Positions 7,050-35,300 of a stretch of 64,000 bases of DNA are shown piece after piece. The stretch lies in the NCBI RefSeq assembly GCF_001677475.2, contig NZ_CP015229.1; one strand, given 5' to 3'. The stretch is from Escherichia coli (GTDB lineage: Bacteria > Pseudomonadota > Gammaproteobacteria > Enterobacterales > Enterobacteriaceae). The notes beneath the pieces are model-generated. The model was given only the letters and a program-made list of their open reading frames with translations, ran no database searches and was not told the DNA's origin. Both the position numbers and the translations under genes were made by a program. The stretch's first letter is position 1, and each line of letters opens with the position of its first letter.

Positions 7050-7054
7050 AGTAT

Positions 7055-7320: not shown

Positions 7321-7472
7321 CCACTGTTTTTACACCGATAATTTTTCCCCCACCTTTTTGCGCTCATTCATATAAAAAATATATTTCCCCACGGAAACGA
7401 TTGCTTTTTATTTTCAGATGAATAGAATGCGGCGGATTTTTTGGGTTTCAAACAGCAAAAAGGGGGAATTTC

Positions 7473-7844
7473 GTGTCGCAAGATAACAACTTTAGCCAGG
7501 GGCCAGTCCCGCAGTCGGCGCGGAAAGGGGTATTGGCATTGACGTTCGTCATGCTGGGATTAACCTTCTTTTCCGCCAGTATGTGGACCGGCGGCACTCT
7601 CGGAACCGGTCTTAGCTATCATGATTTCTTCCTCGCAGTTCTCATCGGTAATCTTCTCCTCGGTATTTACACTTCATTTCTTGGTTACATTGGCGCAAAA
7701 ACCGGCCTGACCACTCATCTTCTTGCTCGCTTCTCGTTTGGTGTTAAAGGCTCATGGCTGCCTTCACTGCTGCTGGGCGGCACCCAGGTTGGCTGGTTTG
7801 GCGTTGGCGTGGCGATGTTTGCTATTCCGGTGGGCACCACATAG
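7473..7844 (+). pseudogene. codB: Cytosine permease CodB, 5' fragment (about 121 native codons) ending in 2 foreign codons and a stop created by the island junction
   Basis: Translation MSQDNNFSQGPVPQSARKG...VAMFAIPVG then TT*; the native continuation KATGLDIN... is found at 30919. Confidence 0.9.
7833..7836. other. Left island/chromosome junction (attL-like), GGCA shared with the right junction
   Basis: Native codB identity is lost after 7836; GGCA recurs at 30919-30922 where codB resumes. Confidence 0.6.
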
Positions 7845-7921
7845 GTCAATACCACCACAATAAAATTTTCCAATAAAAAAGCCCCATCACAAGGACAGGG
7901 CTATAGAATCAATTACTTACA

Positions 7922-8227
7922 TCACTTAATGTCTTTCATTCTACGAATACGCGCGCTTGCTTCGGATAGTTCTTCCAGTGTTACGTGATGTGCAAGCATA
8001 TAGACAGGAGTCGGATCGAATCCCTCGTGAGTATTGATCAGATGACTATTCCCGCCTTTAAACTCATCCTGTCCATCCCATATAGCGTACACGTCATCTT
8101 CTGCTACATAGATAATCAATCCAATAGGGGAGTCAGTAAGCTGGAAGATGCAGCCAGTAGAATCAATGCGATGTTCCCGAACGTCATCAACAGTTTCAAA
8201 GTCAATCTTAATATCTTTAGTCTTCAT
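7922..8227 (-). CDS. Hypothetical protein (101 aa), first gene inside the island's left end
   Basis: ORF only; no recognisable motif. Confidence 0.45.
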   Translation of the reverse strand: MKTKDIKIDFETVDDVREHRIDSTGCIFQLTDSPIGLIIYVAEDDVYAIWDGQDEFKGGNSHLINTHEGFDPTPVYMLAHHVTLEELSEASARIRRMKDIK

Positions 8228-8527
8228 GATTTGCCCTCGCGTGAAAAATATTTTCGATTATTTATAAAAAAAGACTTGACAAAATCAAAAGGTACTGTTC
8301 CACTGGTGAAATAAAGGGAGTTTTCGGCACCCCGGTTTTTGATGTGCGTGTGAGATTTCAAAACAGGTGCAGTGCAGCCCACCAGCGCGGTCGCTACGCG
8401 ACTATTAACACCCGCCAATCCCTTTCCCCGCCTCGATCTTTCATCTCGTTATAAATCGTTTTAGGCGCTCTCCTGAATGCGCAGATCAGATAAATAATTT
8501 TACGCAAATTTAAAGGAGGATAACCGG

Positions 8528-9079
8528 ATGAAAGAAGAATTAACCCTTACAGAAATTTCCCGCTTATACGGCTATACAATTAACGCCGCTAAGAAATGGC
8601 AAGAACGAGGAATGCCATTTAATACCAATACACGACGCGTACCAGCCAAAGAGGGGACCGAGTGGGTATTAAAAAATATCATCAACCCGCTTAAAGAAAC
8701 TACTGTCAAGGAACAAATCGACGTAGAGAAGTTACGCCGTGAGAGAGCATTAGCGGATGCAGCCGAACGAGAGAACCAGGAAGCAATGAATCTCCTGATT
8801 CCGGTCGGTTATGTAGAACAGGAACTAGCGGAATATTGCGGAAAGGTGAAACAGACTATTTTGCAGATCGCCACAATCGATGCTTTAGAAATTCTTGAAT
8901 CTGCCACTGACCAGAAAACATTGAAGAATAAGCTAAGGGAGATCATCGAGCGTCGTTTAAATGAAGTAGGGGACTTGTTCGAAAATGCGGATTTGGGAGA
9001 AGACGAGGAAGAAGAATTACCATTAATCGATGAACCGGAACAAGAACCAGAAGAAGACGATGAATTTGATGTGTCTTAA
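8528..9079 (+). CDS. Nu1-like small terminase / DNA-packaging HTH protein (183 aa) with acidic C-terminal tail
   Basis: N-terminus LTLTEISRLYGYTINAAKKWQERGMPF and EKLRRE segment resemble lambda Nu1 (QLADIFGASIRTIQNWQEQGMPV...EKLRRE); RBS AGGAGG upstream. Confidence 0.65.
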   Translation: MKEELTLTEISRLYGYTINAAKKWQERGMPFNTNTRRVPAKEGTEWVLKNIINPLKETTVKEQIDVEKLRRERALADAAERENQEAMNLLIPVGYVEQELAEYCGKVKQTILQIATIDALEILESATDQKTLKNKLREIIERRLNEVGDLFENADLGEDEEEELPLIDEPEQEPEEDDEFDVS

Positions 9080-9129
9080 AACGCGTTATAAATAAATGTA
9101 TGAAAGATGTTGAGCTGGTCAACGTCTAC

Positions 9130-9160
9130 GGGGGGAATCACCCCCCGCTAACCTTTTTCT
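9130..9160 (+). terminator. Rho-independent terminator after the Nu1-like gene
   Basis: GGGGGG-AATCA-CCCCCC hairpin followed by a T-rich tract. Confidence 0.55.
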
Positions 9161-9177
9161 TATTTGAGGATTTACCT

Positions 9178-9279
9178 ATGGTTGAATTTTTGATTTATCT
9201 GGCTGTAGGATTAACTATCGTATATTCACTGGCACATATTGGCATTTCTACTTTGTGTAACGCTTTCAAGTATCATTAA
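9178..9279 (+). CDS. Small hydrophobic peptide (33 aa, MVEFLIYLAVGLTIVYSLAHIGISTLCNAFKYH)
   Basis: Hand-translated short ORF below the ORF-track cutoff; single predicted TM helix; GGA-rich sequence upstream. Confidence 0.3.
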   Translation: MVEFLIYLAVGLTIVYSLAHIGISTLCNAFKYH

Positions 9280-9332
9280 TTAAATCGATGAATTGAACTA
9301 TAGATGATGGTCGTTTTCAAAGAGGATTATCT

Positions 9333-9506
9333 ATGGATCTTTTTGTCTATTTCGCTACTCTGCTGTTTTTGACTATCGTCGCTGGCATTAAATTGATTTT
9401 TATCTCGCTGGTGGTGTTTTTCAAATTTCTAATCGGTACGCCTTACGGCTGGGTATGCTTCTTCTTGTTTATTCTTTTTAGTTGCTGTAAATCAGACACT
9501 AAATAA
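9333..9506 (+). CDS. Small hydrophobic protein (57 aa, two predicted TM segments)
   Basis: Hand-translated ORF MDLFVYFATLLFLTIVAGIKLIFISLVVFFKFLIGTPYGWVCFFLFILFSCCKSDTK; RBS AGAGGA upstream. Confidence 0.35.
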   Translation: MDLFVYFATLLFLTIVAGIKLIFISLVVFFKFLIGTPYGWVCFFLFILFSCCKSDTK

Positions 9507-9801
9507 TATTGTAATCTGCCTTTCTCCTACATGGTTATTAACAGGGAATTTTCGAAAGAGAGTTCCCGATTAAAAGCCATAAAACACACTCCAGTACAGT
9601 GTTTTCATAGTCAGTGATCTATACATCATAAAAACATAACAAGTATAGATTGAGTGTTAATCCTCCCGCCCTTCGGGGCGGTTATTTTCTGGCTTTACTA
9701 GATAATGTAGCATCATGTTCATTATAAACCTCATCTTTGTTGTGCAAACCTAACCTTAACCTAAGTATAGGGAGTCTCTTAAATGGGACTCCCTTTTTTT
9801 A

Positions 9802-10044
9802 TTATGCAACCACTCGAAGTGTAGGTTTCTTATGTTGTGTAGGTTTATTGCCATTTCGCCACTCAGGAAACACCTGATCCATCATAACCGCGTTAGTTTC
9901 ATCAATCAGCTTTAGAGTCTTTCGTAATGCGGCGTTATCAGCTTTAAGCGATTTAATCTCTGAATCCATCTTAGCCATACGCTCTTTCATGTTGGTAATT
10001 TCTAACATCAGATTACCCAGAAATTCTTTGTTTTGATTAATCAT
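9802..10044 (-). CDS. Hypothetical coiled-coil protein (80 aa)
   Basis: ORF with heptad-like region MKERMAKMDSEIKSLKADNAALRKTLKL; last gene of a leftward 3-gene cluster. Confidence 0.45.
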   Translation of the reverse strand: MINQNKEFLGNLMLEITNMKERMAKMDSEIKSLKADNAALRKTLKLIDETNAVMMDQVFPEWRNGNKPTQHKKPTLRVVA

Positions 10045-10059
10045 AGAATTACCCCTCTA

Positions 10060-11046
10060 TTAAGCTGCGTATGCGTAGGCGCTGTAGTTGGTGTCGTAAA
10101 TCGCGTCATGTAATGCCATGTGTGCTTCGCGGATCTCGTCTTCGTTTACTTCAATCTCTTCTTGTTCTTCTTCGGTATCTTCCCAGCTAGTTTTGAATTT
10201 AGTCATAAAGTTGGTGCGCAGAGTTTCAAAGTTGGTAACTGGTGCGGATTCTGCTTCAACCGGAACCGGAACAACTACCGGATCAGCTTCTTGTTCTACT
10301 TCTTCACCGTTACCCCAGCGATAGTTAAGGAGTTCTTCATCAATGGATTTTTCTTCAACTGCTTTAACTTCAACCGCTGCTACTTCGAAAGTGGTTTCCT
10401 GTGCTGCCAGTTCAGCTTTCAGAGATGCGTTTTCAGCTTCCAGTTCAGCGATGCGTGCTTTCAGTGCTTCAACTTCGGAAGATTCAACCACTGCAACTTC
10501 TTCTTTAACTTCTTCAACTACTACCGGAGCAACTTCTTTCTGTGCTTCTTTTTTGCAGAAGAAGGAGGAAGTAACCTGTAATGCGTGGTTGTAGAAGGAA
10601 CCGCCTTTAGCGGTGTTAACAGTACCAGAAACATCTTTTACAGTGGATTCAGTAGCAACAGTACGGAAGCGTTTAGCAACTTCCTGGGTCTCTACGCCGT
10701 ATTCGTTGCGCTTGCTCTTGTGATGCATTACAGCACGGTAGCCGGAAGCAGTTTTAACAACAGCCAGATAGTAAGTTTCATCGGCTTTAACAGCACGAGC
10801 GAAGCAATAAACGGATTCACCTTCTACCAGTGTAGGTTTAACGTGACGTTTGTCGAAACGGTTAGTGATCTGCCATTCAGCACCGTCTTTGATGCCAGCA
10901 TTCTGACGCATTTCGGTCAGAGTCTTACCGGATACTACTTCAAAGGATTTGTCTTGTTTGCTTGCTTTACCTTCCATAACAGTAATGTTCAGTTTGCCGT
11001 TGGATTTAATAAACATGTTGAAGGTAATGCGCTTAGAATTTTTCAT
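10060..11046 (-). CDS. Hypothetical protein (328 aa): basic N-terminal domain, acidic coiled-coil C-terminal half
   Basis: ORF; C-terminal EVEALKARIAELEAENASLKAELAA and many E/D-rich stretches; no catalytic motif recognised. Confidence 0.5.
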   Translation of the reverse strand: MKNSKRITFNMFIKSNGKLNITVMEGKASKQDKSFEVVSGKTLTEMRQNAGIKDGAEWQITNRFDKRHVKPTLVEGESVYCFARAVKADETYYLAVVKTASGYRAVMHHKSKRNEYGVETQEVAKRFRTVATESTVKDVSGTVNTAKGGSFYNHALQVTSSFFCKKEAQKEVAPVVVEEVKEEVAVVESSEVEALKARIAELEAENASLKAELAAQETTFEVAAVEVKAVEEKSIDEELLNYRWGNGEEVEQEADPVVVPVPVEAESAPVTNFETLRTNFMTKFKTSWEDTEEEQEEIEVNEDEIREAHMALHDAIYDTNYSAYAYAA

Positions 11047-11163
11047 ATAAATACTCCTGAATACTCTGTGTTAGTTTTAATGTGTCATACTAAAAGCCTC
11101 CTTGCGCCAACAGGGAGGCTTTTTTATTTTTAAAGCCATCATATAATTCTCAGTGAAAGGTTA

Positions 11164-19538: not shown

Positions 19539-21539
19539 ATGCTTAAATTTCGCCGCGATCTTAACGGTTACGGTGGAGTTATTAACGAAGGGCATAACGA
19601 TCAATACGAATTTGAAATTGCTTTCTCCAGTGAACAGCCTTATCAGCGCCAATTCTGGGATGAGCAAAATCAAGAAATGGTGGTATTAGATGAAATTCTG
19701 GTACATACACCGGAAGCGGTTGATCTGTCTCGTCTGAATAATAACGCTCCGTTGCTGTTCAATCACAATTTCGATAATCACATTGGTGTCGTTTGTAACG
19801 CTCGAATCGATGCGGATAACGTAGGTCGTGCTCTGGTTAAATTCTCCAAGCATGGGACTTTGGCTAATGATATTCGTAACAAAGTCATCGAAGGTACGAT
19901 GGAAAAAATTTCTGTCGGCTATGACATTAAAGAGTATCACATCGACTACGCCAAATCGCAACTCATTGTTTCTAAATGGATTCCTCACGAGGTTTCATGG
20001 GTCACGGTACCCGCAGACGACACAGTGGGTCTGAATCGCTCTCTAAATACTATCACAGTTAATTTGGAGGCTAAACGCGATATGACTAAAGAACAAATCG
20101 AAGAAATCAAAAACGAAGAAGCCGCTCCGGTTGAAGAAACTCCGGTAGAAGAAAATAAAGAACCGGAAGTTGAAGAAACTCAAGAGCGCCAAGTTGAAGA
20201 GAATAAAGAAAATGAAAATCTCGAAGACGGAAAAGACGCTGAACATCCTGAAAGTGTTGATGATGATAGTTCAACTGTTCGGGAAGAAGAAATAAAAGAA
20301 GAACGTGAAGCTGCTCCGGTTGAAGAAGAAAAAATTGAAGAAGTGGCTGAACGTTCCGAAGAAGACGAATTAGAAATCCGCGAGATCGCGCGGGAACTAA
20401 ATATTGATGACTCTGAATTAGCACGTGCATTGTCGATTAAAGACATGACGCCGGAAGCATTCCGCACTAAGGCACTAAATAATCTCGTCAATGCTCAACG
20501 TAATAACGAACAACAAATTAAGGACTCTAAAATGGAAAAAACTTTTGACCTGAACAACGTAATTCGCTCTCTGGTAGATGGTGCTGCTCTGGGTGCTAAC
20601 GAAGCTGAATATTCCGCTATGGCTGCTACTGCAACTATGCAGCGTGGTCGTGCTGCTCGTGGTGGCTCCGTATTCGTTCCGGCTGCTGCTCTGCGTGCTG
20701 CTGCTGCTGGTAACACTAAAGCTACTCTGGAAGCTGTAACCGACGAAAAACTGCTGACTGAATCCTACATCGAAATGCTGATGCCTCAGAGTGTTTTAGG
20801 CCGCCTCGGTGTGACCGTTCTGTCTGGTCTGAATAGCCCGATCGCTGTTCCGAAAATGACTGCTTCCAGCGTTGACGCTTTCGGCTTCGTTGATGAAAAC
20901 GGTGCTGCACCGGAAAGCAAAGCTCAGTTTGAAAACGTGAAAATGGCTCCTAAGACTTTCGCAGGTGGCAACCCGATCAGCCGTCAGTCTCTGAAAACCG
21001 TTCCGGGTATCGCTACCCTGATCACTGATCACATTAACAAAGCTGTTCGCATCAAACTGGAACAACTGATTCTGTCTGATAAAGCTAACGACCGTGGTCC
21101 GGCTGGTCTGGTTAAGCAACTGGTAGACGCGGGTCGCGTTACTAAGAAAGCCGCTTTCTCTTACAAAGACTTCCTGAAAGAAATTGCAGCACTGACCGAC
21201 GCTGGCGTTCCTGCTCAGGCGATCAAGTTTGCGATGAGCGGTGCAACTGCTGCTGAACTGGAATCTACCCTGAAAGATAACGGCGTTTCCGGTTATATCA
21301 TCGAAAACGGCAAACTGGCTGGTTACGAAGTAGTTACTTCTGGTGTTATCCCGGCAGACCACATCGTTCTGGGCGCGTTCGACGGTATCACCATTGGTGA
21401 GTGGGGCGGTCTGGAACTGGATATGGACGACACTACCTACCGTGCACAGTCTGCAATCGTTCCGCGTATCTGGGTAGATCTGGATTACGTTGTAACCCAG
21501 CCGGAAGCTCTGAAAGTTCTCCAGATTGGCGGTGAATGA
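19539..21539 (+). CDS. Fused prohead serine protease, E/K-rich scaffold-like linker and HK97-fold major capsid protein (666 aa)
   Basis: N-terminal PLLFNHNFDNHIGVV...KISVGYD fits the caudovirus prohead protease signature; residues ~190-320 are E/K-rich; C-terminal ~340 aa resemble HK97-type capsid proteins. Confidence 0.75.
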   Translation: MLKFRRDLNGYGGVINEGHNDQYEFEIAFSSEQPYQRQFWDEQNQEMVVLDEILVHTPEAVDLSRLNNNAPLLFNHNFDNHIGVVCNARIDADNVGRALVKFSKHGTLANDIRNKVIEGTMEKISVGYDIKEYHIDYAKSQLIVSKWIPHEVSWVTVPADDTVGLNRSLNTITVNLEAKRDMTKEQIEEIKNEEAAPVEETPVEENKEPEVEETQERQVEENKENENLEDGKDAEHPESVDDDSSTVREEEIKEEREAAPVEEEKIEEVAERSEEDELEIREIARELNIDDSELARALSIKDMTPEAFRTKALNNLVNAQRNNEQQIKDSKMEKTFDLNNVIRSLVDGAALGANEAEYSAMAATATMQRGRAARGGSVFVPAAALRAAAAGNTKATLEAVTDEKLLTESYIEMLMPQSVLGRLGVTVLSGLNSPIAVPKMTASSVDAFGFVDENGAAPESKAQFENVKMAPKTFAGGNPISRQSLKTVPGIATLITDHINKAVRIKLEQLILSDKANDRGPAGLVKQLVDAGRVTKKAAFSYKDFLKEIAALTDAGVPAQAIKFAMSGATAAELESTLKDNGVSGYIIENGKLAGYEVVTSGVIPADHIVLGAFDGITIGEWGGLELDMDDTTYRAQSAIVPRIWVDLDYVVTQPEALKVLQIGGE

Positions 21540-21730
21540 ACTCCTGTAGAACCATCTGAACCTTCCCCCGATTTGGGGGAAGAAAATCTGATTCCTGAAC
21601 CGGAAGAAGAATCCCAGACGGTTAAGGCGAAAGCCACAGTTAAAAAACAACGTAAAACTAAAGAATAATAATTAGCCCTGCCTAACGGTGGGGCTTTTTT
21701 GTATGTAAATACTCCATAAAGGGGGTAACT

Positions 21731-22021
21731 ATGTTCAAATTATCAGAATCACAATTATCAAGAATGTTTAAGAGTGCTCCTGTATTTGTGGTGGAAGGTG
21801 GTAAATCAATTCGTGCTTATCATGAAATTACTACTACCGACGAATCAGGGGTAATGACAGAAACAGAATTTCTATTCTGTCGTGAGGGAGACTTAAAGCA
21901 AGGTGATATTGTCACAGTAGAAAACCAGCGTTTCAAAGTTCAATATATTAAGCGCAATGGTGACAATACAACTGATTGCTTTATTACTCTGGCAGGGGGT
22001 ACACATGCTCGCTACCGTTAA
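21731..22021 (+). CDS. Putative head-tail joining / head-completion protein (96 aa)
   Basis: Size and position after the capsid gene; RBS AAAGGGGG. Confidence 0.4.
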   Translation: MFKLSESQLSRMFKSAPVFVVEGGKSIRAYHEITTTDESGVMTETEFLFCREGDLKQGDIVTVENQRFKVQYIKRNGDNTTDCFITLAGGTHARYR

Positions 22022-22427
22022 TAATATGCCGAGACTGAAAATCAAACGCGCCTTGCAAGATATTATCGAACAAGATTTAGGTCTGGCTTTAAACGTAGAA
22101 CAAACTCAGCAAGGCTTTAGCGATGACGTGGTTTGTTGGATTACTGGCATGAATGAAACTTATACGCGTGTTCGTGGTGGTAATGCAATGCAAGCTGAAT
22201 GTGTTATCGAAATGCAGTTATATTCTCAGATTCATGAAACGAAAATTCATGAGGGTATTTGCGAGATAATCCAGATTCAGCCGGATAACCCACGATTTAA
22301 AGATTTGGGCTTCTCAATTTCAGATATCACTCCAGTAGCTTCTAATACCGATTATGACGATGATTCTAGTGATGGGGGTATCGTTGGGACACTTAGCCTT
22401 AAATTTTCTTATCTAGCGCGTTTTTAA
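22002..22427 (+). CDS. Putative head-tail connector/adaptor protein (about 141 aa; ORF track offers an upstream ATG at 21957)
   Basis: Overlaps the end of the previous gene (translational coupling); RBS GGGGGT before the 22002 ATG. Confidence 0.4.
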   Translation, partial: HMLATVNNMPRLKIKRALQDIIEQDLGLALNVEQTQQGFSDDVVCWITGMNETYTRVRGGNAMQAECVIEMQLYSQIHETKIHEGICEIIQIQPDNPRFKDLGFSISDITPVASNTDYDDDSSDGGIVGTLSLKFSYLARF

Positions 22428-22436
22428 GGGGTAATA

Positions 22437-23270
22437 ATGAATATTACACAAGATAACTTAGACATTTTCACGGGGTCGCATGTTGAAGTCTCCTTGTCTA
22501 CTATGGTGGATAACCAGCCGGACTTTTTCGATCCTGCATTTAGTCCTATCGAGAACATCGCAGCATTCCCGACGATAACCGAATCCACAGAGATCCAGAC
22601 GTTAGAAGAATATGACCATGATGTTACTGGTAAGTTGGCTGGCTATCGTAAACTTGAATCAACTACGTTAGTAGTAAACCGTGTTCTGGATGATGAACAT
22701 CAAGACATGTTGATGAAAGCGGTGAATGATAAAACTCCTTTACGCTTTCGTATGTTCTATGTTGTGAACTCTGGTTACAGTGCTGCTAACACAGGTTACT
22801 ACGTCATCTTTGACGCTTTCGTCTCGTCACATAAAACAAAATCCGGCGATAACAAAGTTACTACAATCGAGTTTAAATTAGAACCTGATGGCGGGATTCT
22901 GGATCGCGGTATTGCTACCGAAGGCCGGATCTTACGTCAAGGTGATTTTGGTCTGGGTGCTGGTGTAAATCCATTCACGGGTCCGATTGATAGCGAAGCA
23001 TTAGCCGGAAACCGTTTCGTAACCTATCAGGGATCGAGCGCATCTAACCCATTTAGTGCTGATACTTCACTAATTCACGTTCAACCTAATGAAGATGGAG
23101 GATGGCAATTAACTTGCACCGCCTCCGGCGCACCACGTTTACGAGTTCGCACAGTCCAGAAAGATGGTAATTCTGGATGGGTGAAAGTGTATTCCACAGA
23201 AGAAAAACCGACACCAGCCGAGATTGAAGCCGTTTCTATCCATGACAGGATCGATTTCGGGGAATACTGA
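22437..23270 (+). CDS. Putative virion structural protein (277 aa), neck/tail-proximal; function unclear
   Basis: ORF with RBS between connector genes and tail fibre; G/S/T-rich C-terminal half. Confidence 0.4.
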   Translation: MNITQDNLDIFTGSHVEVSLSTMVDNQPDFFDPAFSPIENIAAFPTITESTEIQTLEEYDHDVTGKLAGYRKLESTTLVVNRVLDDEHQDMLMKAVNDKTPLRFRMFYVVNSGYSAANTGYYVIFDAFVSSHKTKSGDNKVTTIEFKLEPDGGILDRGIATEGRILRQGDFGLGAGVNPFTGPIDSEALAGNRFVTYQGSSASNPFSADTSLIHVQPNEDGGWQLTCTASGAPRLRVRTVQKDGNSGWVKVYSTEEKPTPAEIEAVSIHDRIDFGEY

Positions 23271-23346
23271 TTGCTTCTCTAAATAAAAACATGACGCGGG
23301 GAGGTTAACGCCTCCCTTATTCCTGTTTTTATAGTGAGGTGATTAG

Positions 23347-26271
23347 ATGCAATCAATCCAATTTAAACGAACTAGTGTTTCTGGCAAAAAACCTACGCCG
23401 GAACAATTACAGGTCGGTGAGGTAGCAATCAACCTTAAAGACCATGTTATTTTCACCAAAGACCGAGATAATGCCGTAGTTCAAATCTCTGTTTCTCCTG
23501 AAACTCACACTGCATTAGAAACTAAAGTTAATGCGAATAAGAAAGAATTAGACGGCAAGATTACTACAAATCACAACAATATTAACGCTAAAGTAGATGA
23601 AATTAAACAAACTACTGATGCAACTATCGCAGCAAATCACGCAGAAATTAACAATAAAGTTGATGTGATTAAGCGCGAAACCGATGCGACAATCACGGCT
23701 AATAAAAATAAAGCTGCTTCCGACCTTGCTGGCGTTAAAGCTGAATTGTCCGATACCATCACCGCTAATAAAAATGCGGCTGCTGTAGCAACTCAGGAAC
23801 TGGACACCCGCATCAATAAAAAAGTTGATGATAACAAAGCTAAAACTGATGCAACTATCGCCAGCAATCACAAAGCAATCAATGACAAAGTTGATTTGAT
23901 TAAGGCCGAGACTGACCGCACTATCGCAGCAAATAAAACATATGCTGATACTCAGCTAACTAATGCTACTAATGATCTGAATACTGTCATTGCTGCAAAT
24001 AAAAAAGAAGCTGCTGATAGCGTGGCTGCATTAACTAAGACTGTAAACACTAAAGATACAGCGATTCATAGAAAAGTTGACGAGAATAAAGCACTGACCG
24101 ACGCGGAATTATCCCGTTTGTCTGGACGACTTGAAGATGTTGCTAGTATTGGTCAAAACCGAGGCGAATTGCCAGTAGATGCTAATCTTGATCACTATGG
24201 TCCACGTTCAGAATTTGCTGGTATTTGGGGTAAATCGACTTCAACGAATGCACAACCAAGTCACAATTTCCCAGAAGAAAATGCTGTAGGTGTTCTGGAA
24301 GTTTTCACAGGCGGTCAATTCTCTGGGACTCAGCGTTATACAACACGCTACGGTAATATCTACATTCGTTCTCTTACCGCTACATGGAATGGTACTGATG
24401 GTCCGTGGTCGCCGTGGCGCAATATTCAGATGGGTACACGTCCGCTTTCGTCAACCATCGATCTTAATGATTTGGGTGGAGTTGAGCATTTTGGTTTATG
24501 GCGCAATAGCTCTAACTCAATTGCGGCTCTAGAAAGGAATTTCCCAGAAGCTGGGGCGATGGCACAAGGTCTTTTAGAAGTCTTTGAGGGTGGCAACTAC
24601 TCCCGCACTCAGCGTTATACGACCAGAATGGGCGTTGTATATGTTCGCTGTCTTGCTGCTGCATGGGATGCTAGTGCTCCTAAATGGGGTCCGTGGCAAC
24701 AAGTAGGTAATGTAACACCGTCTACTTTCTATGACGGAAACCTGAACAACTTCAAAACACCTGGTTTATATAACATTTTAGGCACTGACAAAGTTACTAA
24801 CCGTCCTGTTGCAGAAGGTGTTCCGGTTGAGATGACCGCATTGCTTGAGGTTAAACAGCGTGCTTCCGGTGGCGCTATTTTCCAACGTTTCACTACCGCA
24901 GGAACGGGAACTACTACCCGTGGTCGTGTTTTTGAACGTGCAATGACAAATAATATCTGGGGAGATTGGCACGAAGTACATACATCATATTCTATGCCAA
25001 TTACTTTAGGTATCGGTGGGATTAAAACACAATTAGAATCTTTAGATTGGCAAACTTTTGATTTTGTTCCTGGTAGCATGTTTAGCGTGCCATTGAATAA
25101 AATTACCAATATGCCAGCAAAAATGGATTGGGGAACAATTGACGGAAACCTGATCATGTTTTCCGTTGGTCCTAGTGAACACACTAGCACAGGGCGTACT
25201 GTTCAGGTTTGGCGTGGTACTGTGTCTCAAGCAAACTACCGTTATTTTGTTGTTCGTGTATTTGGTAATTCAGGAGAGAGAACTTGCACCGTTCGCCGTG
25301 TTGCTCTTGAGGATGGTCGCCATACATGGACAGCACAACAAGATTTTAACGGCGCGGTTAACTTCGGTGGGTCTGTTGTTAACTTTAAAACAGCCACTAA
25401 CTTTAATAACACTACCAGTTTTAAAACAGAAGCTAAATTTCTTTCATCTAATGCATTCCGTATGTATGGCGGTAATTTTGGTGCATTCTTGCGTAATGAT
25501 GGTGAAAGTGTTTATCTTCTTTCCACCAATGAAAATGATAAAGATGGAAACTATAATACAAATAGACCTTTCCGGTATCAGTTAAAAACTGGTGATGTTA
25601 CTTTGGGTGGAACTAGCGGTGCTGATATTTTAAGATTAAAAAGTAGTTCTCTTGCTGCTACCTTTGGCGGTGATGTTAATTTAAGTAAAGGCGTATTGAC
25701 GTTTGAAGCTGGCGGTAAGCAATCTCGCGATTATTTCCGGTTTAATCATTGGGGTGATAGCAATAAAGCTCGCGATAACATCATTCAGTTAGAAGATAGT
25801 AAAGGTGCTCATTTTTCCACTGAACGCACACTGGCAACGGGTGCAATCAAAACTAAGTTCTTTGGTGAAGTTGAATCCGATGGTCGATTAACTATTAAAC
25901 GTCCGGGTGATGCTATTGTATTATCGACTACAGCTAGCAACTCGTTGCATATTCGTGGTGATGTTGGTGGAAGCAATAACTGGTATATTGGTAAAGGTGG
26001 TGCTGATAATTCACTAGCATTTTATAGCTACGCAACTAAAGCGGGTATACACATCACAAATAATGGTGAGATATCATTTGCCCCGCAAAATTTTGCTGGT
26101 ATTAACATTAACAAAGACCGTATCTATATCAATGCTACACAATGGATTGCTAATCATTCCGGTTCATGGGATGGACAGTGGAGAGAAGAAGCACCCATCT
26201 TTATTGATCAGGGTAGTGTTGGACAAGATAGCTATTATCCTCTTATTAAAGGACATAGCCAGATCACAGGT
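23347..26271 (+). CDS. Tail fibre protein (974 codons), 3' end interrupted by an IS3-family element
   Basis: Repeated KVDxIKxxTDATIxANxxxIN helical repeats; C-terminal GSNNWYIGKGGADN resembles T7 gp17 tip motif NNWYIGRGSDN; stop codon TGA is the first 3 bases of the IS. Confidence 0.75.
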
Positions 26272-26328
26272 TGAATCGCCACGGGTTTAACAGACACCTC
26301 AGAGTCATTTAAGATGGCTTAAAGAGAG

Positions 26329-26613
26329 GTGCCCATGAGCGGTAAGCGTTATCCCGAAGAGTTTAAAATTGAAGCAGTCAAACAGGTTGTTGATCGCGGT
26401 TATTCTGTTGCCAGCGTTGCAACACGTCTCGATATCACCACCCACAGCCTTTACGCCTGGATAAAGAAGTACGGTCCGGATTCTTCCGCTAATAAAGAAC
26501 AGTCAGATGCTCAGGCCGAGATCCGCCGTCTCCAGAAAGAGCTGAAGCGGGTTACCGACGAACGGGACATATTAAAAAAAGCCGCGGCGTACTTCGCAAA
26601 GCTGTCCGACTGA
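26329..26613 (+). CDS. IS3-family transposase OrfA (HTH, leucine-zipper region)
   Basis: 94 aa ORF MSGKRYPEEFKIEAVKQVV...; ends shortly after the A7 slippery site. Confidence 0.85.
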   Translation: MPMSGKRYPEEFKIEAVKQVVDRGYSVASVATRLDITTHSLYAWIKKYGPDSSANKEQSDAQAEIRRLQKELKRVTDERDILKKAAAYFAKLSD

Positions 26614-27482
26614 GGTACGCCTTTATCCGTGACAACACCTGTTGCTGGCCTGTTCGCCTGCTCTGTCGGGTGCTGGATGTTCATCCCAGTGGTTTTTACG
26701 CCTGGCTTCAGCAGCCGCATTCACAACGCCATCAGGCAGACCTGAGGCTGACAGGGCAGATTAAACAGTTCTGGCTGGAATCGGGATGCGTCTATGGTTA
26801 TCGCAAAATCCATCTGGATCTGCGGGACAGCGGGCAACAGTGCGGAGTGAACAGAGTCTGGCGACTGATGAAACGTGTCGGGATAAAGGCTCAGGTCGGA
26901 TACCGGAGCCCGCGGGCACGTAAAGGCGAGGCCAGTATCGTGTCGCCCAACAGGCTCCAGCGACAGTTCAATCCGGATGCTCCGGATAAGCGTTGGGTAA
27001 CGGACATAACCTACATCAGGACCCACGAAGGCTGGCTGTATCTTGCCGTGGTTGTTGATCTGTTCTCACGCAAAATTATCGGCTGGTCCATGCAATCCCG
27101 GATGACAAAGGACATTGTCCTGAACGCACTGCTGATGGCTGTATGGCGCCGTAATCCCCAAAAACAGGTGCTGGTTCATTCGGATCAGGGCAGTCAGTAC
27201 ACAAGCCATGAGTGGCAGTCGTTCCTGAAATCACACGGCCTGGAGGGCAGCATGAGCCGTCGCGGTAACTGCCATGATAATGCGGTTGCAGAAAGCTTTT
27301 TCCAGTTGTTGAAACGCGAACGGATAAAGAAAAAGATCTACGGAACGCGGGAAGAAGCCCGCAGCGATATTTTTGATTACATCGAAATGTTTTATAACAG
27401 TAAGCGTCGGCATGGTTCCAGCGATCAGATGTCACCGACAGAATATGAAAACCAGTATTATCAACGGCTCGGAAGTGTCTAG
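26575..27482 (+). CDS. IS3-family transposase OrfB (integrase catalytic DDE domain), expressed as OrfAB by -1 frameshift; ORF-track ATG at 26670
   Basis: -1 frame relative to orfA, open from the slippery site; motifs WVTDITYIRT, VVDLFSRKIIGW, HSDQGSQYTS, NAVAESFF. Confidence 0.85.
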
Positions 27483-27548
27483 ATTATCCGTGGCGATTCA
27501 GACAAATTTATTAAATTTGGAATCACTACCCGAAAACCAGAAGAACGA

Positions 27549-27938
27549 ATGAGAGAGCAAACCAGAAAGAGCAACTTCACTCACCGATTAATCTTTACTC
27601 ATGAGTTTGAGGATGGTTGGAAAGCTGCCGATTTAGAGCATGAAGTAAAACAACGCTTCAAGACTCATGCCGCACCCTACAAAGATTTCAAGGATGGATG
27701 GTCGGAAACTCTGACTATCGATGAGTTGCCACACTTACAGCAACTGGTTTATGACTACCTAACCAATCAACCGGACGAGGCTAATATGTGGGTATCCCCG
27801 AAAGATGTATTTGATGACGATACATTCAAGCTACATACTCACTTCTACGGCATCAATAAACCGGAATTTTTCTGTATTGATGACGATAGTCCTGATTTAA
27901 TGGATGAATACTTTAATTCTCTCTTAGACGCTGCCTAA
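27549..27938 (+). CDS. Hypothetical protein (129 aa from first ATG; open frame extends upstream to the IS end at 27501), probably 5'-truncated; possible GIY-YIG/T5orf172-like domain
   Basis: Frame is open from 27501 (DKFIKFGITTRKPEERMREQ...); KFGITT...R...E pattern recalls the second motif of GIY-YIG/T5orf172 domains; weak, from memory only. Confidence 0.35.
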   Translation: MREQTRKSNFTHRLIFTHEFEDGWKAADLEHEVKQRFKTHAAPYKDFKDGWSETLTIDELPHLQQLVYDYLTNQPDEANMWVSPKDVFDDDTFKLHTHFYGINKPEFFCIDDDSPDLMDEYFNSLLDAA

Positions 27939-27950
27939 CGCAATTAAATT

Positions 27951-27973
27951 AAAAAGGGGTACATCTGTACCCC
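27951..27973 (-). terminator. Hairpin terminator downstream of the recombinase gene
   Basis: GGGGTAC-ATCT-GTACCCC stem-loop preceded on the plus strand by AAAAA (T-tract on the minus strand). Confidence 0.5.
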
Positions 27974-28011
27974 TTAAAGCGTTTATCTCGTTATACGTCG
28001 ATTTAGGCCGC

Positions 28012-29709
28012 TTAAATTCCAAATTCCTGCAACAATCCCGGTTGTTCTTCTTCTGGTTTCCAGTTCTTATCTGTCAGCATTTCTAAACATGGATGCAGAA
28101 CAAGCCCGTTGCTCTCCAGAATCTGCCTATCATTGATAGTCTTCACGTCTACAAAAATTCTCCCTTTCCGGTTACGGCGTGACCTCTCGATCACTATCCT
28201 TTGCGTCTTCCCGTCGATGTACTCCATCACAAAATGATTATAATTGGTATCAATCTTGTAACATTTTATAGACTTAACAGCTTCTTTAATCTTCAATCGA
28301 ACTTTTAACCGTTCCTCGCTGCAAACATCCTCTAAATCAAATTGTGCGAGCTTCTCCCAGCCTTGAGAATCAACTGAATACATGTTCTCTTCTATTACCT
28401 TAATCTGGTTATAGATGGCCTCACGCTCATGATTCAGGGTAGTAATCTGGTCGGCTAACTCCTTCGTTGCTCCTGTCATTGCAGAAAGACTAATCAGGTT
28501 ATCAATCTTGCGTGAAATGTCTTCAATCTGGGCTTGCATTCCTGGGATCGGATTGGCCTTATCCTCAGCAATCCAGATTTTATCCGCCAGCAATTGCAAT
28601 ACAGCCTTATCCAGTTGATCACCACGAAAGCCCCAATTTGGATGATCACAATTGGTCCTCCTGCTATCTGCGCCATCGCACATATAACGATATTGGGCTA
28701 ATCTCTCTTTTGATGCTCCGCTTCTCTTAACCATACTTGCCCCACAATGACCACATCTAAGCAAACCAGCACCACTTAACAGGGTAATAACAGGACTAGA
28801 CTTAGTAGGATAAGAAAACGACCTCAGTCCTATAGTCTTCTTGAGTTGATAGAACTCGGCATCTTCCATCACTCGCGGGTAATAATCCTTTAACTCATAT
28901 GTCACACCTTCAATGGTTATCTCTTTGATACCAAGTAAAGCGCGGTTAGAGAACATCCTGGCTAACATAGAACGCGCCCATTTCTTAGGGGTATCTTTGT
29001 TCGTTGTGTAATTAGGCGGGGCGATTCTTTCATTCAGATAATCAAGAACCCGACCATTAGAATAACCATTCTGTTTTAATTCAACGATTTTCTTGATAAC
29101 AGGAAAATACACCGGATGTGGAAGCACATAACCCGATGAAGTATCAGCCCACCATATATTGCGACCAACTTCCTCGATTGCCACTGCCGGATTTTGTGGA
29201 TTCTCCTGATGGGCTTTAACCTTGAGTAGTGCGCTTGAGTTAGTGCGATTGCGTTTAGTCTGACTTTCCTCATTTGCACGAGCAAACAACATTACACTCA
29301 ACAGTAAATCGATGGGATTAGCATTAACCGATTCTTTGCTATATACCTTCCCATCCATACCAGTAACAATTGTTATTCCCCTGCGGATGATCGAAAGGAA
29401 TAGCTCTTGAGCTTCAATAACAGATTGACGGGAGATACGGTCTAAGTTTTCCACCACCAGCCAGCTACCAACCGGAACGGATCGACCAATTTCATCCAGA
29501 AAACGAGATAATGCACCTGTTTTACTGTTAGCCCCTTTGAATGCAGATACACCGAAATCCTGATAGGAAGTAACTAGCTCAAGATCATATTTTGCGGCTA
29601 TCTCTTTCGCTGTTCTCTTCTGGCGTTCAAATGAGCTACCATCGGCTTGCTTCATGGAAGAGAAGCGAATATACGAATACAGTTTAGTTTTCATACCATT
29701 TCCAAACAA
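28012..29709 (-). CDS. Large serine recombinase (integrase), 565 aa
   Basis: N-terminal resolvase-type catalytic domain (YSYIRFSSMKQ with candidate nucleophile Ser, VVENLDRISRQ), recombinase domain, Cys-rich zinc ribbon CGHCG...C...C, C-terminal coiled-coil. Confidence 0.88.
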   Translation of the reverse strand: MFGNGMKTKLYSYIRFSSMKQADGSSFERQKRTAKEIAAKYDLELVTSYQDFGVSAFKGANSKTGALSRFLDEIGRSVPVGSWLVVENLDRISRQSVIEAQELFLSIIRRGITIVTGMDGKVYSKESVNANPIDLLLSVMLFARANEESQTKRNRTNSSALLKVKAHQENPQNPAVAIEEVGRNIWWADTSSGYVLPHPVYFPVIKKIVELKQNGYSNGRVLDYLNERIAPPNYTTNKDTPKKWARSMLARMFSNRALLGIKEITIEGVTYELKDYYPRVMEDAEFYQLKKTIGLRSFSYPTKSSPVITLLSGAGLLRCGHCGASMVKRSGASKERLAQYRYMCDGADSRRTNCDHPNWGFRGDQLDKAVLQLLADKIWIAEDKANPIPGMQAQIEDISRKIDNLISLSAMTGATKELADQITTLNHEREAIYNQIKVIEENMYSVDSQGWEKLAQFDLEDVCSEERLKVRLKIKEAVKSIKCYKIDTNYNHFVMEYIDGKTQRIVIERSRRNRKGRIFVDVKTINDRQILESNGLVLHPCLEMLTDKNWKPEEEQPGLLQEFGI

Positions 29710-29757
29710 AAACGCCCCTACCGTGTATTATAACGATAGGGGCTAGGTGATTAAAGA

Positions 29758-30171
29758 TTAAAGAATTTCACGGCAGCTAATCAGGGTATAAGATGTATCA
29801 CCTTTTTTAACATCAAATATAGGAGCGCCATCTACAGAATGCAGATATTTGATGTAGGATTTACCATCTTCGGAACCATAATATTCTTCTTTCTCGTTCT
29901 TATCTTCTTTCAGTTTCGGGCTTTTGATTGTTCTATCAAATACCGGATCGTTGAAAGCAAATTGACTATTATCATCATTCACGCGAACTTTCACACCGAT
30001 AAAGCCACGGTATTTTCCAGACGGTGCATGATAATAACGGTCGCCATCACTCAGGTAGCGTGTATCATCTCCTTTATGTTCGAAGTAGGAATTACACACA
30101 TAATAGGTATTAGCATTAGCAGTACCAACCAAACCCATAGCAAGAACGATACCAGCGATAATCTTTTTCAT
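29758..30171 (-). CDS. Exported protein (137 aa) with N-terminal signal peptide
   Basis: MKKIIAGIVLAMGLVGTANA signal-like N-terminus; two Cys residues; no other motif. Confidence 0.5.
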   Translation of the reverse strand: MKKIIAGIVLAMGLVGTANANTYYVCNSYFEHKGDDTRYLSDGDRYYHAPSGKYRGFIGVKVRVNDDNSQFAFNDPVFDRTIKSPKLKEDKNEKEEYYGSEDGKSYIKYLHSVDGAPIFDVKKGDTSYTLISCREIL

Positions 30172-30216
30172 AGTAGAATTTCCTCTTGTTATTTGAATTA
30201 CGATATATTTATATCG

Positions 30217-30342
30217 TTAAAAGTTGATGCTGATTACCAGACCAAACACAACCGCACCAATCAAATCAATCCAGTTAATACACAATCCGCTATATTCTTT
30301 CTTGAATGTCTTAGATGAAATGCCATCATGAAATTGTTTCAT
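30217..30342 (-). CDS. Small membrane peptide (41 aa, MKQFHDGISSKTFKKEYSGLCINWIDLIGAVVFGLVISINF)
   Basis: Hand-translated; RBS GGGGTGA; C-terminal hydrophobic helix. Confidence 0.35.
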   Translation of the reverse strand: MKQFHDGISSKTFKKEYSGLCINWIDLIGAVVFGLVISINF

Positions 30343-30345
30343 TGC

Positions 30346-30426
30346 TCACCCCATACTAACGACAAGATAAGAAAGGCTGATCATAGTTGTGAGACTACCT
30401 CCCACGAATGAGATAAAAGCTAACAT
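30346..30426 (-). CDS. Small hydrophobic peptide (26 aa, MLAFISFVGGSLTTMISLSYLVVSMG)
   Basis: Hand-translated; RBS GGAGA 8 nt upstream; immediately precedes the 41-aa peptide. Confidence 0.3.
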   Translation of the reverse strand: MLAFISFVGGSLTTMISLSYLVVSMG

Positions 30427-30483
30427 GTTTGATTCTCCAGTTTAAAAAGCGGTGGGAATTGCACCCACCAAATTAGAAATTAA

Positions 30484-30891
30484 TTAAGCGCGAACGATGG
30501 TCAGAGTATCCAGCAAACCTTTTTCGTATAATTCGAAACACGTTTTATATTGCTCAATCTTCCAACCGTAGCGGGTGATCTTATTCAGTAGAACAATCGC
30601 GCTACTTTCATCCAGATATTGCCCCTGCTTACCGATTACATAAGTCTCACGATTCAGCTTTAACTTACGGAAACCTTTAACACCTAATTCCTTAGCCACC
30701 GCTTTAATCTCTTTAATCTCACCTTCTGCGGCTACATATTCAGCGTCGATAATCTCAGGTGATGATCTCAGTGCTACCAGAACTAAGGCCATTGCTTCTT
30801 CTTCGGTACGAGCAACACCAGCTTTCTCGAAAGTCATCTCACCAAATTTACGAATCATGATATTGAACATTGTCTGTATTCCTGCGTTCAA
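30484..30891 (-). CDS. Hypothetical protein (135 aa; alternative start at MFNIMIRK), last gene before the right junction
   Basis: ORF only; start faces the right island boundary. Confidence 0.45.
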   Translation of the reverse strand: MNAGIQTMFNIMIRKFGEMTFEKAGVARTEEEAMALVLVALRSSPEIIDAEYVAAEGEIKEIKAVAKELGVKGFRKLKLNRETYVIGKQGQYLDESSAIVLLNKITRYGWKIEQYKTCFELYEKGLLDTLTIVRA

Positions 30892-30912
30892 ACTTAATGT
30901 GGTTGGAATGAT

Positions 30913-31818
30913 ATGTTAGGCAAGGCAACCGGGCTGGATATTAATATGCTGATTGCAGTCTCCGGTTTACTGATGACCGTCACCGTCTTCTTTGGCATTT
31001 CGGCGCTGACGGTTCTTTCGGTGATTGCGGTTCCGGCTATCGCCTGCCTGGGCGGTTATTCCGTGTGGCTGGCCGTTAACGGCATGGGCGGCCTGGACGC
31101 ATTAAAAGCGGTCGTTCCCGCACAACCGTTAGATTTCAATGTCGCGCTGGCGCTGGTTGTGGGGTCATTTATCAGTGCGGGCACGCTCACCGCTGACTTT
31201 GTCCGGTTTGGTCGTAATGCCAAACTGGCGGTGCTGGTGGCGATGGTGGCCTTTTTCCTCGGCAACTCGTTGATGTTTATTTTCGGTGCAGCGGGCGCGG
31301 CGGCACTGGGGATGGCGGATATCTCTGATGTGATGATTGCTCAGGGTCTGCTGCTGCCTGCGATTGTGGTGCTGGGGCTGAATATCTGGACCACCAACGA
31401 TAACGCACTCTATGCGTCGGGTTTAGGTTTCGCCAACATTACCGGTATGTCGAGTAAAACCCTTTCGGTGATTAACGGTATTATCGGTACGGTCTGCGCA
31501 CTATGGCTGTATAACAATTTTGTCGGCTGGCTGACCTTCCTTTCGGCAGCTATTCCTCCGGTAGGGGGCGTGATCATCGCTGACTATCTGATGAACCGTC
31601 GCCGCTATGAGCACTTTGCGACCACGCGTATGATGAGTGTCAATTGGGTGGCGATTCTGGCGGTCGCCTTGGGGATTGCCGCAGGCCACTGGTTACCGGG
31701 TATTGTTCCGGTCAACGCGGTATTAGGTGGCGCGCTGAGCTATCTGATCCTTAACCCGATTTTGAATCGTAAAACGACAGCAGCAATGACGCATGTGGAG
31801 GCTAACAGTGTCGAATAA
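30913..31818 (+). pseudogene. codB: Cytosine permease CodB, 3' fragment (fortuitous ATG at 30913 created by the junction)
   Basis: Translation (ML)GKATGLDINMLIAVSGLLMTVTVFFG... matches the CodB C-terminal two thirds. Confidence 0.9.
30919..30922. other. Right island/chromosome junction (attR-like), GGCA
   Basis: Native codB reading resumes at 30919 (GKATGLDIN...); imperfect inverted symmetry between the inner island ends (ACCACCACAAT at left vs reverse-complement CCAACCACATT at right). Confidence 0.6.
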
Positions 31819-33091
31819 CGCTTTACAAACAATTATTAACGCCCGGTTACCAGGCAAAGAGGGGCTGTGGCAGATTCATCTGCTGGACGGAAAAATCAGC
31901 GCCATTGATGCGCAATCCGGCGTGATGCCCGTAACTGAAAACAGCCTGGATGCCGAACAAGGTTTAGTTATACCGCCGTTTGTGGAGCCGCATATTCACC
32001 TGGACACCACGCAAACCGCCGGACAACCGAACTGGAATCAGTCCGGCACGCTGTTTGAAGGCATTGAACGCTGGGCCGAGCGCAAAGCGTTATTAACCCA
32101 TGACGATGTGAAACAACGCGCATGGCAAACGCTGAAATGGCAGATTGCCAACGGCATTCAGCATGTACGTACCCATGTCGATGTTTCGGATGCAACGCTG
32201 ACCGCGCTGAAAGCAATGCTGGAAGTGAAGCAGGAAGTCGCGCCGTGGATTGATCTGCAAATCGTCGCCTTCCCGCAGGAAGGGATTTTGTCGTATCCCA
32301 ACGGTGAAGCGTTGCTGGAAGAGGCGTTACGCTTAGGGGCAGACGTAGTGGGGGCGATTCCGCATTTTGAATTTACCCGCGAATACGGCGTGGAGTCGCT
32401 ACATAAAACCTTCGCCCTGGCGCAAAAATACGACCGTCTCATCGACGTTCACTGTGATGAGATCGATGACGAGCAGTCGCGCTTTGTCGAAACCGTTGCT
32501 GCCCTGGCGCACCGTGAAGGAATGGGCGCGCGAGTCACCGCCAGCCACACCACGGCAATGCACTCCTATAACGGGGCGTATACCTCACGCTTGTTCCGTT
32601 TGCTGAAAATGTCCGGTATTAACTTTGTCGCCAACCCGCTGGTCAATATTCATCTGCAAGGACGTTTCGATACCTATCCAAAACGTCGCGGCATCACGCG
32701 CGTTAAAGAGATGCTGGAGTCCGGCATTAACGTCTGCTTTGGTCACGATGATGTCTTCGATCCGTGGTATCCGCTGGGAACGGCGAATATGCTGCAAGTG
32801 CTGCATATGGGGCTGCATGTTTGTCAGCTGATGGGCTACGGGCAAATTAACGATGGCCTGAATTTAATCACCCACCACAGTGCCAGAACGTTGAATTTGC
32901 AGGATTACGGCATTGCCGCCGGAAACAGCGCCAACCTGATTATCCTGCCTGCAGAAAATGGGTTTGATGCGCTGCGCCGTCAGGTTCCTGTACGTTATTC
33001 GGTACGTGGCGGTAAGGTGATTGCCAGCACACAACCGGCACAAACCACCGTATATCTGGATCAGCCAGAAGCCATCGATTACAAACGGTAA
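31808..33091 (+). CDS. codA: Cytosine deaminase (GTG start; ORF track offers ATG at 31793)
   Basis: [16 protein letters not shown]..., metal-dependent amidohydrolase HxH motif PHIHLD; overlaps codB end. Confidence 0.95.
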
Positions 33092-33130
33092 TTTCCTCTG
33101 TGTTGAAGAGCCACTGACCTGTGTCAGTGG

Positions 33131-34030
33131 CTACCGTGATTCATTCTCGCCAACAACCGCGCATTCCTCCAACGCCATGTGCAAAAATGCCTTCGCGGCG
33201 GCTGTCTGCCAGCTATTTTTCCGCCGCAACAAAACCGCCGTTCTCTCCAGTAGTGGAGGGGCAAGAGAAATAGCTTTAAGCCCGTCATGTTGTGTGGCAA
33301 TAGCTGCTGGTAATAATGTGGAAAGGGAAGTGCGGCGAATCAACTCCAGAACCGCGCTAATTGAGTTCGCCTCAATGACCACCTGTGGATGTAGCCCCGC
33401 TTTCTCGCAGTAGTGGTCAATTTGCTCTCTGGTGGCAAATTCCGCGCTGAGCAGGACCAGTTTTTCATCATGCAAGCGACTCAACGCCACCTGTTCATGG
33501 GCGGCCAGCGGATGATGTTGCGCCACGACTAACGCTAAACTTTCTGTTAGTAAAGGAATTGCCTCCAGCTCCGGCGAATGCACAGGCGCGAAGGCAATCC
33601 CAACGTCCAACTCGTCGCGACAAAGCAGATCTTCGATTTTCTCCTGCGACATTTCCTGTAGCTGGAGCGTGATGCCGGGGTAGCGCGCATAGAAATCTGC
33701 CATTAAAGGGCCGATAAAGTAGCTCGTAAAGGTGGGGGTGACGGCGATACGCAGCGATCCTCGCGTCAGATCGGCAACATCATGAATCGCCCGTTTACCC
33801 GCCCCCAGTTCCTGTAACGCCCGGCTGGCGTACTGTCGCCAGACTTCTCCTGCATCAGTGAGACGAATCGTTCGCCCGCTACGGTCAAACAGCGGCACGC
33901 CCAAACTTTCCTCTAACTGGCGAATCTGCTGGGAAAGCGCAGGCTGGGAGACGTGCAACGCACTGGCGGCACGGGTAAAGCTGCCATGTTCAGCCACGGC
34001 AAGAAAATAATTGATATGTCGAGAGAGCAT
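33131..34030 (-). CDS. cynR: LysR-family regulator of the cyn operon
   Basis: [40 protein letters not shown]; divergent from cynT. Confidence 0.93.
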
Positions 34031-34139
34031 TCGCCAACCTATAAGTAAACCCAATAGAACTCATCATAAATGAGTCTTTTACCTTATGACAATCGGCGAG
34101 TAGTCTGCCTCTCATTCCAGAGATAGACAGAGGTTAACG

Positions 34140-34799
34140 GTGAAAGAGATTATTGATGGATTCCTTAAATTCCAGCGCGAGGCATTTCCGAAGCGGGAAG
34201 CCTTGTTTAAACAGCTGGCGACACAACAAAGCCCGCGCACACTTTTTATCTCCTGCTCCGACAGCCGTCTGGTTCCTGAGCTGGTGACGCAACGTGAACC
34301 TGGCGATCTGTTCGTTATTCGCAACGCGGGCAATATTGTCCCTTCCTACGGGCCGGAACCCGGTGGCGTTTCTGCTTCGGTGGAGTATGCCGTCGCTGCG
34401 CTTCGGGTATCTGACATTGTGATTTGCGGTCATTCCAACTGTGGCGCGATGACCGCCATTGCCAGCTGTCAGTGCATGGACCATATGCCTGCCGTCTCCC
34501 ACTGGCTGCGTTATGCCGATTCAGCCCGCGTCGTTAATGAGGCGCGCCCGCATCCCGATTTACCGTCAAAAGCTGCGGCGATGGTACGTGAAAACGTGAT
34601 TGCTCAGTTGGCTAATCTGCAAACGCATCCATCGGTGCGCCTGGCGCTCGAAGAGGGGCGGATCGCCCTGCACGGCTGGGTCTACGACATTGAAAGCGGC
34701 AGCATCGCAGCTTTTGACGGCGCAACCCGCCAGTTTGTGCCACTGGCCGCTAATCCTCGCGTTTGTGCCATACCGCTACGCCAACCGACCGCAGCGTAA
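34140..34799 (+). CDS. cynT: Carbonic anhydrase
   Basis: 219 aa, beta-carbonic anhydrase motifs CSDSR and HSNCGA. Confidence 0.95.
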
Positions 34800-34811
34800 C
34801 CTTATTTTTAA

Positions 34812-35300
<489 letters not shown>

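Follow-up and report, generated by a model that had tools for sequence, protein, structure and literature searches.

In the Escherichia coli window analysed here, a single stretch of 64,000 bp, an ISEhe3-type insertion sequence (IS) very probably mediated a deletion of ~15 kb inside a prophage integrated in codB. In none of the IS-free relatives do the two flanks of this IS adjoin each other, and each breakpoint falls exactly on an IS terminus. Since, in addition, no target-site duplication (TSD) is present and the flanks stand ~15 kb apart in the relatives, the whole arrangement bears the signature of an IS-mediated deletion, in agreement with a first, sequence-only reading of the region, which had proposed either an IS-adjacent deletion or a recombination between two IS copies. 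What is left is a defective prophage (7837-30922) of ~23.1 kb with the IS vs. ~36 kb for its intact relatives, as delimited by the two parts of codB and by synteny with two of these relatives (L010 and L011).

The IS and its target sites

The IS (26272-27500, plus strand) is a complete 1229-bp element of the IS3 family, devoid of TSD. It is 100% identical to full-length copies present in many E. coli chromosomes and plasmids and, because these copies match from base 1 to base 1229 precisely, its boundaries are fixed. Its ends, TGAATCGCCACGG...CCGTGGCGATTCA, are of the TG...CA type, the end being the exact reverse complement of the start over 13 bp. The left inverted repeat (26272-26300, plus strand) is perfect over these 13 bp and imperfect over ~29 bp, its right counterpart covering positions 27472-27500 (plus strand). 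According to the ORF list and the profile matches, orfA (26335-26613, plus strand, frame 1) codes for the helix-turn-helix part of the transposase, and orfB (26670-27482, plus strand, frame 0, ending at 27482) for its DDE catalytic part, orfB being shifted to the -1 frame with respect to orfA. Seven consecutive A residues (A7, 26574-26580), located inside orfA, form the slippery sequence for the -1 programmed frameshift. Both products match the NCBIfam profile NF033516 ('IS3 family transposase'), OrfA with an E-value of 1.8e-18 and OrfB with 338.7 bits for a cutoff of 160, and identical IS copies carry the PGAP label 'IS3 family transposase, programmed frameshift'. TG/CA inverted repeats, two ORFs with a -1 frame and a match to the DDE profile, all found here, characterise the IS3 family, and the short (3-5 bp) duplication expected upon simple insertion is observed at other copies of this IS, with a length of 3 bp. 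The full-length identical copies and the profile score thus bear out the initial description of this interval as an IS3-family element with clear ends.

The pPATH plasmid of Pantoea agglomerans is where ISEhe3 was originally described. The IS of the window is 98.9% identical, without gaps and over 1229/1229 bp, to both of the only two IS3-family elements of plasmid pT5282-Ct2, which are ISEhe3 copies according to the authors of that sequence (PMC6872532). With a full-length nucleotide identity of 95% or more as the naming threshold, it was designated ISEhe3-type, a name that rests on the published annotation of this 98.9% identical copy and not on the ISfinder reference AF327445. A published table (PMC10425158) assigns ISEhe3, within the IS3 family, to the IS51 group and gives a duplication of 3-4 bp for it. 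The IS of the window shares with the pT5282-Ct2 copies its size of 1229 bp, its TG...CA ends, the -1 frameshift between orfA and orfB and the 3-bp duplication on simple insertion. A literature search for the IS end sequence found no paper.

As for its distribution, at least 80% of the IS is present in 701 plasmid records, and the element is frequent on plasmids of Klebsiella, Enterobacter and E. coli. Among the complete E. coli genomes, 2549 out of 5426 display some match to the IS and 178 possess at least 80% of it. Most of these matches are partial, with 95-99% identity, and their alignments suggest a widespread conserved fragment or a related element.

At the window copy, the flanks read ...ACAGGT / IS / GACAAA..., with no direct repeat of any length, as had been remarked from the GGT and GAC triplets. 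Fourteen other copies of the IS were compared: seven are bordered by an exact 3-bp duplication (CCG, CGC, AAG, TTA, AAA, GGT and GTT), for a chance of 1/64 per copy, and the remaining seven have none. The family member and the usual TSD length, which the sequence-only reading had left to database comparison, are therefore ISEhe3-type and, for seven of the 14 other copies, 3 bp; it is because of these seven exact duplications that the absence of a repeat at the window copy is meaningful. Several of the copies without TSD lie between unrelated truncated genes, e.g. ygeH'/'arsH or shiA/LRR fragment. On pT5282-Ct2, one of the two ISEhe3 copies is also devoid of duplication, and an ISEhe3 copy of this IncC plasmid has been tied to a 24.5-kb deletion (PMC6872532).

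The flanks of the IS and their intact relatives

On the left side, the IS truncates a tail-fibre gene (23347-26271, plus strand) after codon 975. The fibre ORF extends to 26274, its TGA stop (26272-26274) being the first three bases of the IS; this position, read from the ORF list, is the one originally proposed. A 90% cluster look-up of the truncated fibre provided its closest relative, P0068 (1246 aa), identical at 971 of the 975 residues and continuing with 271 more residues that include a Peptidase_S74 domain. The suspected loss of the distal part of the fibre therefore amounts, vis-à-vis P0068, to 271 codons with this domain. Peptidase_S74 is absent from the 975-aa product, where a Gp34_trimer domain was found, and is located at residues 1037-1096 in the fibre of L010. 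The truncated fibre also matches the PHROG 'long tail fiber protein distal subunit' (E = 1e-102), and no NCBIfam family was found for it or for the nuclease remnant described below. On this domain content, the gene is a truncated member of the S74 intramolecular chaperone fibre family. In fibres of the endosialidase and T5 types, trimerisation depends on the S74 domain, an intramolecular chaperone; as this domain is gone, the 975-residue fibre probably cannot trimerise and would be non-functional.

Four short 'tail fiber' proteins of the same 90% cluster (P0063 and P0065-P0067) were considered as possible downstream halves of a simple-insertion intermediate. From their contexts, P0063 and P0067 are C-terminal fibre pieces from other prophages, with no IS nearby; the sequences of P0065 and P0066 are near-identical.

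The contig coding for P0068 (L020) is IS-free and aligns with window positions 17219-26271 at 96% identity, the alignment ending at the last base before the IS. After ...CAGATCACAGGT (GGT), it reads CAAGGTTATTCT..., the fibre running on for 271 codons, followed by three small ORFs, the tail tube gene and the tape measure gene. The comparison with IS-free relatives, suggested in the first reading for recovering the original 3' end of the fibre, thus leads to CAAGGTTATTCT... and not into the sequence 27501-27938.

This right-flank sequence (27501-27938, plus strand) is what remains of the 3' end of a GIY-YIG/T5orf172 nuclease family gene, namely 146 codons, stop included, out of 391. Intact GIY-YIG genes of 11 E. 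coli genomes, where they adjoin a serine recombinase, match it at 95-96% identity over their 3' part. The homology sets in at 27501, which corresponds to nt 734 of the gene, and 1-4 further bases match by chance past the junction; an AGGT overlap of four bases, seen in some of these alignments, was dismissed as fortuitous, the relatives reading AGAT/GAC. The intact protein has a CapR domain at residues 87-122 and a MUG113/T5orf172 domain at residues 247-307. The cut falls at residue 245/246, where the nuclease domain starts, so that residues 246-391 are kept, the CapR part is lost and a complete nuclease domain preceded by CapR-type domains, the arrangement of this subfamily, is not found in the remnant. 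No start codon is present at the junction, the first ATG giving a 129-aa ORF (27549-27938), and the PHROG match of the remnant is 'endonuclease'.

A simple IS insertion, with a fibre gene continuing in 27501-27938 and a duplication merely eroded, has practically no chance of being correct. Its one argument is that the fibre frame is continuous downstream once the IS is removed (1229 mod 3 = 2, which places the GAC of 27501 in frame after GGT), an outcome expected by chance in one case out of three. However, 27501-27938 is a nuclease 3' end without fibre homology, and the near-identical IS-free fibre has an altogether different continuation after GGT. The nuclease nature of the right flank and the known continuation in L020 refute this explanation, and the frame continuity, rightly described at first as no proof of contiguity, is a coincidence, because the right flank belongs to the nuclease gene.

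Between the two breakpoints, full-length relatives carry ~14.7-15.9 kb. The relative in E. coli Z0117EC0005 (L010), integrated in ycdX, aligns with window positions 14507-26253 at its positions 6237-17986 (89.8% identity), and with 27501-29743 at positions 32675-34914 (79%). The 14,670 bp in between (18005-32674 of L010), with 15 complete genes, have no counterpart in the window, and a fibre end like that of L020 would raise the missing length to ~15.9 kb. On the fibre side, this segment consists of the 3' end of the fibre gene and the genes for the tail tube, a tail assembly chaperone and an 809-residue tape measure; in the middle, of those for the distal tail protein, further tail proteins, a 1216-residue tail tip protein and four small proteins; and on the far side, of those for a D-Ala-D-Ala carboxypeptidase (the annotated product, read here as the endolysin) and a DEAD/DEAH helicase, one ORF and the first 245 codons of the nuclease gene. 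In strain 39EVA (L011), codB likewise houses a related full-length prophage, with the whole tail and lysis module from fibre to recombinase. Fibre 3' sequence and tail genes follow the left breakpoint in L020, L010, L011 and L009 alike, and neither blastn nor tblastx found a match to the missing segment anywhere in the 64-kb window. As the full-length relatives are 79-96% identical to the window prophage, and not identical, what exactly was lost, and how much, is an estimate.

The removal of genes downstream of the fibre had been anticipated, and it holds for about 15-18 genes, i.e. the whole tail and lysis module. The example given at the time, a fibre chaperone gene, had to be corrected, because the fibre carries its own chaperone, Peptidase_S74, in the C-terminus lost here. 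As for a separate fibre-assembly chaperone gene, the three small ORFs that follow the L020 fibre are without PHROG match, and this candidate was rejected.

Route of the deletion

The left IS end lies against fibre codon 975 and the right end against nuclease codon 246. The deletion has removed the last 271 codons of the fibre with S74, the tail tube, the tail assembly chaperone and the tape measure, together with the distal tail, hub and tip proteins, the endolysin region, the DEAD-box helicase and the 5' two-thirds of the nuclease gene. Two routes may be envisaged. In the first one, the IS would have inserted a second time, in the same orientation, and the two copies would then have undergone homologous recombination into a single hybrid copy that retains half of the duplication of each site. 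In the second one, a single resident copy would have generated an adjacent deletion by intramolecular transposition. Both routes yield exactly the observed structure.

Among 5,426 complete E. coli genomes, where the closest match to this fibre 3' region is 84%, none showed a simple insertion of the IS, flanked by a duplication, at one or the other breakpoint. The exact right-junction scan of metagenome contigs and the exact left-junction scan of representative genomes both gave zero hits.

The behaviour of another IS3-family element, IS150, provides the nearest comparison. In the long-term evolution experiment, 14 TSD-less adjacent deletions, ranging from 14 bp to 48.9 kb, were associated with IS150, and all of them were traced to an IS already in place, next to which a deletion then arose (Ngan et al. 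2024, PMC11708052). As in the window, an IS3-family element is kept at the junction, without duplication and with losses of up to tens of kb; the difference is that earlier time points show the IS150 copy present beforehand (PMC11708052), whereas the window case comes without an available ancestor.

The same study also proposed that an IS may insert without TSD during a double-strand break deletion (Ngan et al. 2024, PMC11708052). Applied to the window, this would mean a deletion independent of transposase or IS homology, with the IS captured at the break or, alternatively, inserted later exactly at the old junction. Such an origin appears very unlikely, even though a single IS central to a deletion, without duplication, is the structure reported for IS5 in E. 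coli C (PMC11708052), and no intermediate with the IS at only one of the two sites emerged from the complete E. coli genomes and the exact-junction scans. Against it stand the 14 cases of IS150, all with a prior IS, and the fact that a later insertion at an old junction would leave a 3-bp duplication, none being present. An adjacent deletion or a two-copy recombination mediated by the IS itself is therefore preferred.

Both junctions of the window recur in draft assemblies: the left one in contig L012 and eight similar contigs, the right one in L019, a contig seen in 13 samples and identical (100%) to window positions 27472-33938. The draft assemblies of this lineage are unable to link the two flanks, because all of them break inside the IS, and this speaks for an artefact in which two IS copies around an intact tail module would have been collapsed into one by the assembler. 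An artefact of this kind is nevertheless extremely unlikely: the fibre protein is recorded on a 5,498,453-bp contig, i.e. a finished chromosome, and the missing segment is absent from the window. Moreover, no C-terminal fibre fragment of this lineage occurs in the 90% cluster of the fibre: its only full-length member comes from the 96% identical relative and, of its four short C-terminal fragments, the two examined in their context lie in other prophages.

Two other assemblies contain a prophage 99.9-99.99% identical to that of the window over 11.6-12.3 kb, with the same IS abutting the fibre gene elsewhere: at window position 24937 in GCA_018682865.1 (L021) and at ~25622 in ERR3309123 (L022). 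In both, the right IS end (IRR) faces the fibre, i.e. in the orientation opposite to that of the window copy, and the truncated fibres, of 535 and 765 aa, end in IS-encoded residues (LNRHG* and ESPRII*, respectively); both contigs end inside the IS. Three fibre/IS junctions are thus known in prophages with ~1 base difference per 12 kb. Because the same IS abuts the fibre gene at other positions, it has been active repeatedly at this gene in one lineage, which makes the two-copy route plausible, albeit not proven.

A further reading of these sister junctions, which we consider unlikely, is that the IS targets the prophage or hops locally within it, or else that the deletion and the TSD-less arrival of the IS were one and the same break-repair event. 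With local hopping, a single donor copy near the integrase would repeatedly attack the fibre gene, products in direct orientation collapsing into deletions, as in the window, and inverted ones persisting. If this were true, the lineage would represent a natural time series of the stepwise decay of a prophage by a single IS.

The prophage remnant and its setting in codB

IS-linked deletion is a well-known path by which prophages become defective remnants, and the conversion of a recently acquired prophage by an IS-mediated deletion is a textbook phenomenon, already known. Because the tail tube, tape measure, tip and endolysin are gone, the prophage would be unable to build tails, form infectious particles or lyse its host, and would be fixed as a remnant. 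It resembles the cryptic prophages of E. coli in having kept the integrase, the head genes and part of a fibre while having lost tail and lysis functions, with presumably no particles produced, but it differs from them in being recent: its remaining genes are 96-99% identical to those of an intact relative, and sister isolates still vary in their IS junction. It constitutes one more clean case of an IS3-family element fixing a recent prophage as a remnant; the lack of TSD reliably flags such deletions, and no new question is opened by it. For annotation purposes, the region should be described as a defective prophage without tail and lysis genes, the fibre and GIY-YIG ORFs as pseudogene fragments, and the 129-codon ORF as a remnant and not as a gene.

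The right arm of the prophage is marked by a large serine recombinase, the prophage integrase (28012-29709, minus strand). The stretch of L019 identical to this region shows the Pfam domains Resolvase, Recombinase and Zn_ribbon_recom, and relatives are annotated as 'recombinase family protein'. The N-terminal part of codB lies at 7473-7836 and its C-terminal part at 30919-31818, with GGCA at both prophage junctions (7833-7836 and 30919-30922) as the shared core. Most relatives are integrated in ycdX, and their recombinase region shares 79% nucleotide identity with that of the window; 39EVA is the only complete E. coli genome with a relative in codB. Downstream of the prophage, codA, cynR/TSX, lacAYZI and the mhp genes were identified by synteny with 39EVA, and upstream of it are what we take, from the K-12 gene order and the ORF sizes, to be prpBCDE.

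In the relatives, the interval between endolysin and recombinase (29724-33112 in L010 and 17153-20004 in L011) is a variable cargo slot. Most of them carry a DEAD/DEAH helicase there, together with a small ORF and a CapR-T5orf172 nuclease; in 39EVA, the slot is occupied instead by an IS1A and three hypothetical genes of unrelated sequence. Two further prophages of this kind (L023, positions 4766-8000, and L024, positions 4793-8000) have ~3.2 kb of fibre gene without called gene, and only a C-terminal S74 ORF of 174-190 aa is annotated there, which suggests frameshifted fibre genes.

The distal part of the window fibre (24160-26271) shares 75-82% identity with the distal subunits of long tail fibres from T4-like phages, among which the virulent vB_EcoM_ESCO58, UPWr_E1 and Yersinia fPS-65. 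Such a match for the fibre of a temperate phage indicates that temperate phages and virulent ones have exchanged receptor-binding modules. The N-terminal coiled-coil part of the window fibre gene contains internal imperfect repeats (23590-23716 and 23820-24021) of ~74% identity.

Finally, the prpE-codB interval (7071-7320) matches, at 80-89% and in several overlapping registers, a stretch near mhpT in 39EVA (L011, 42466-42819), and looks like an intergenic repeat element.
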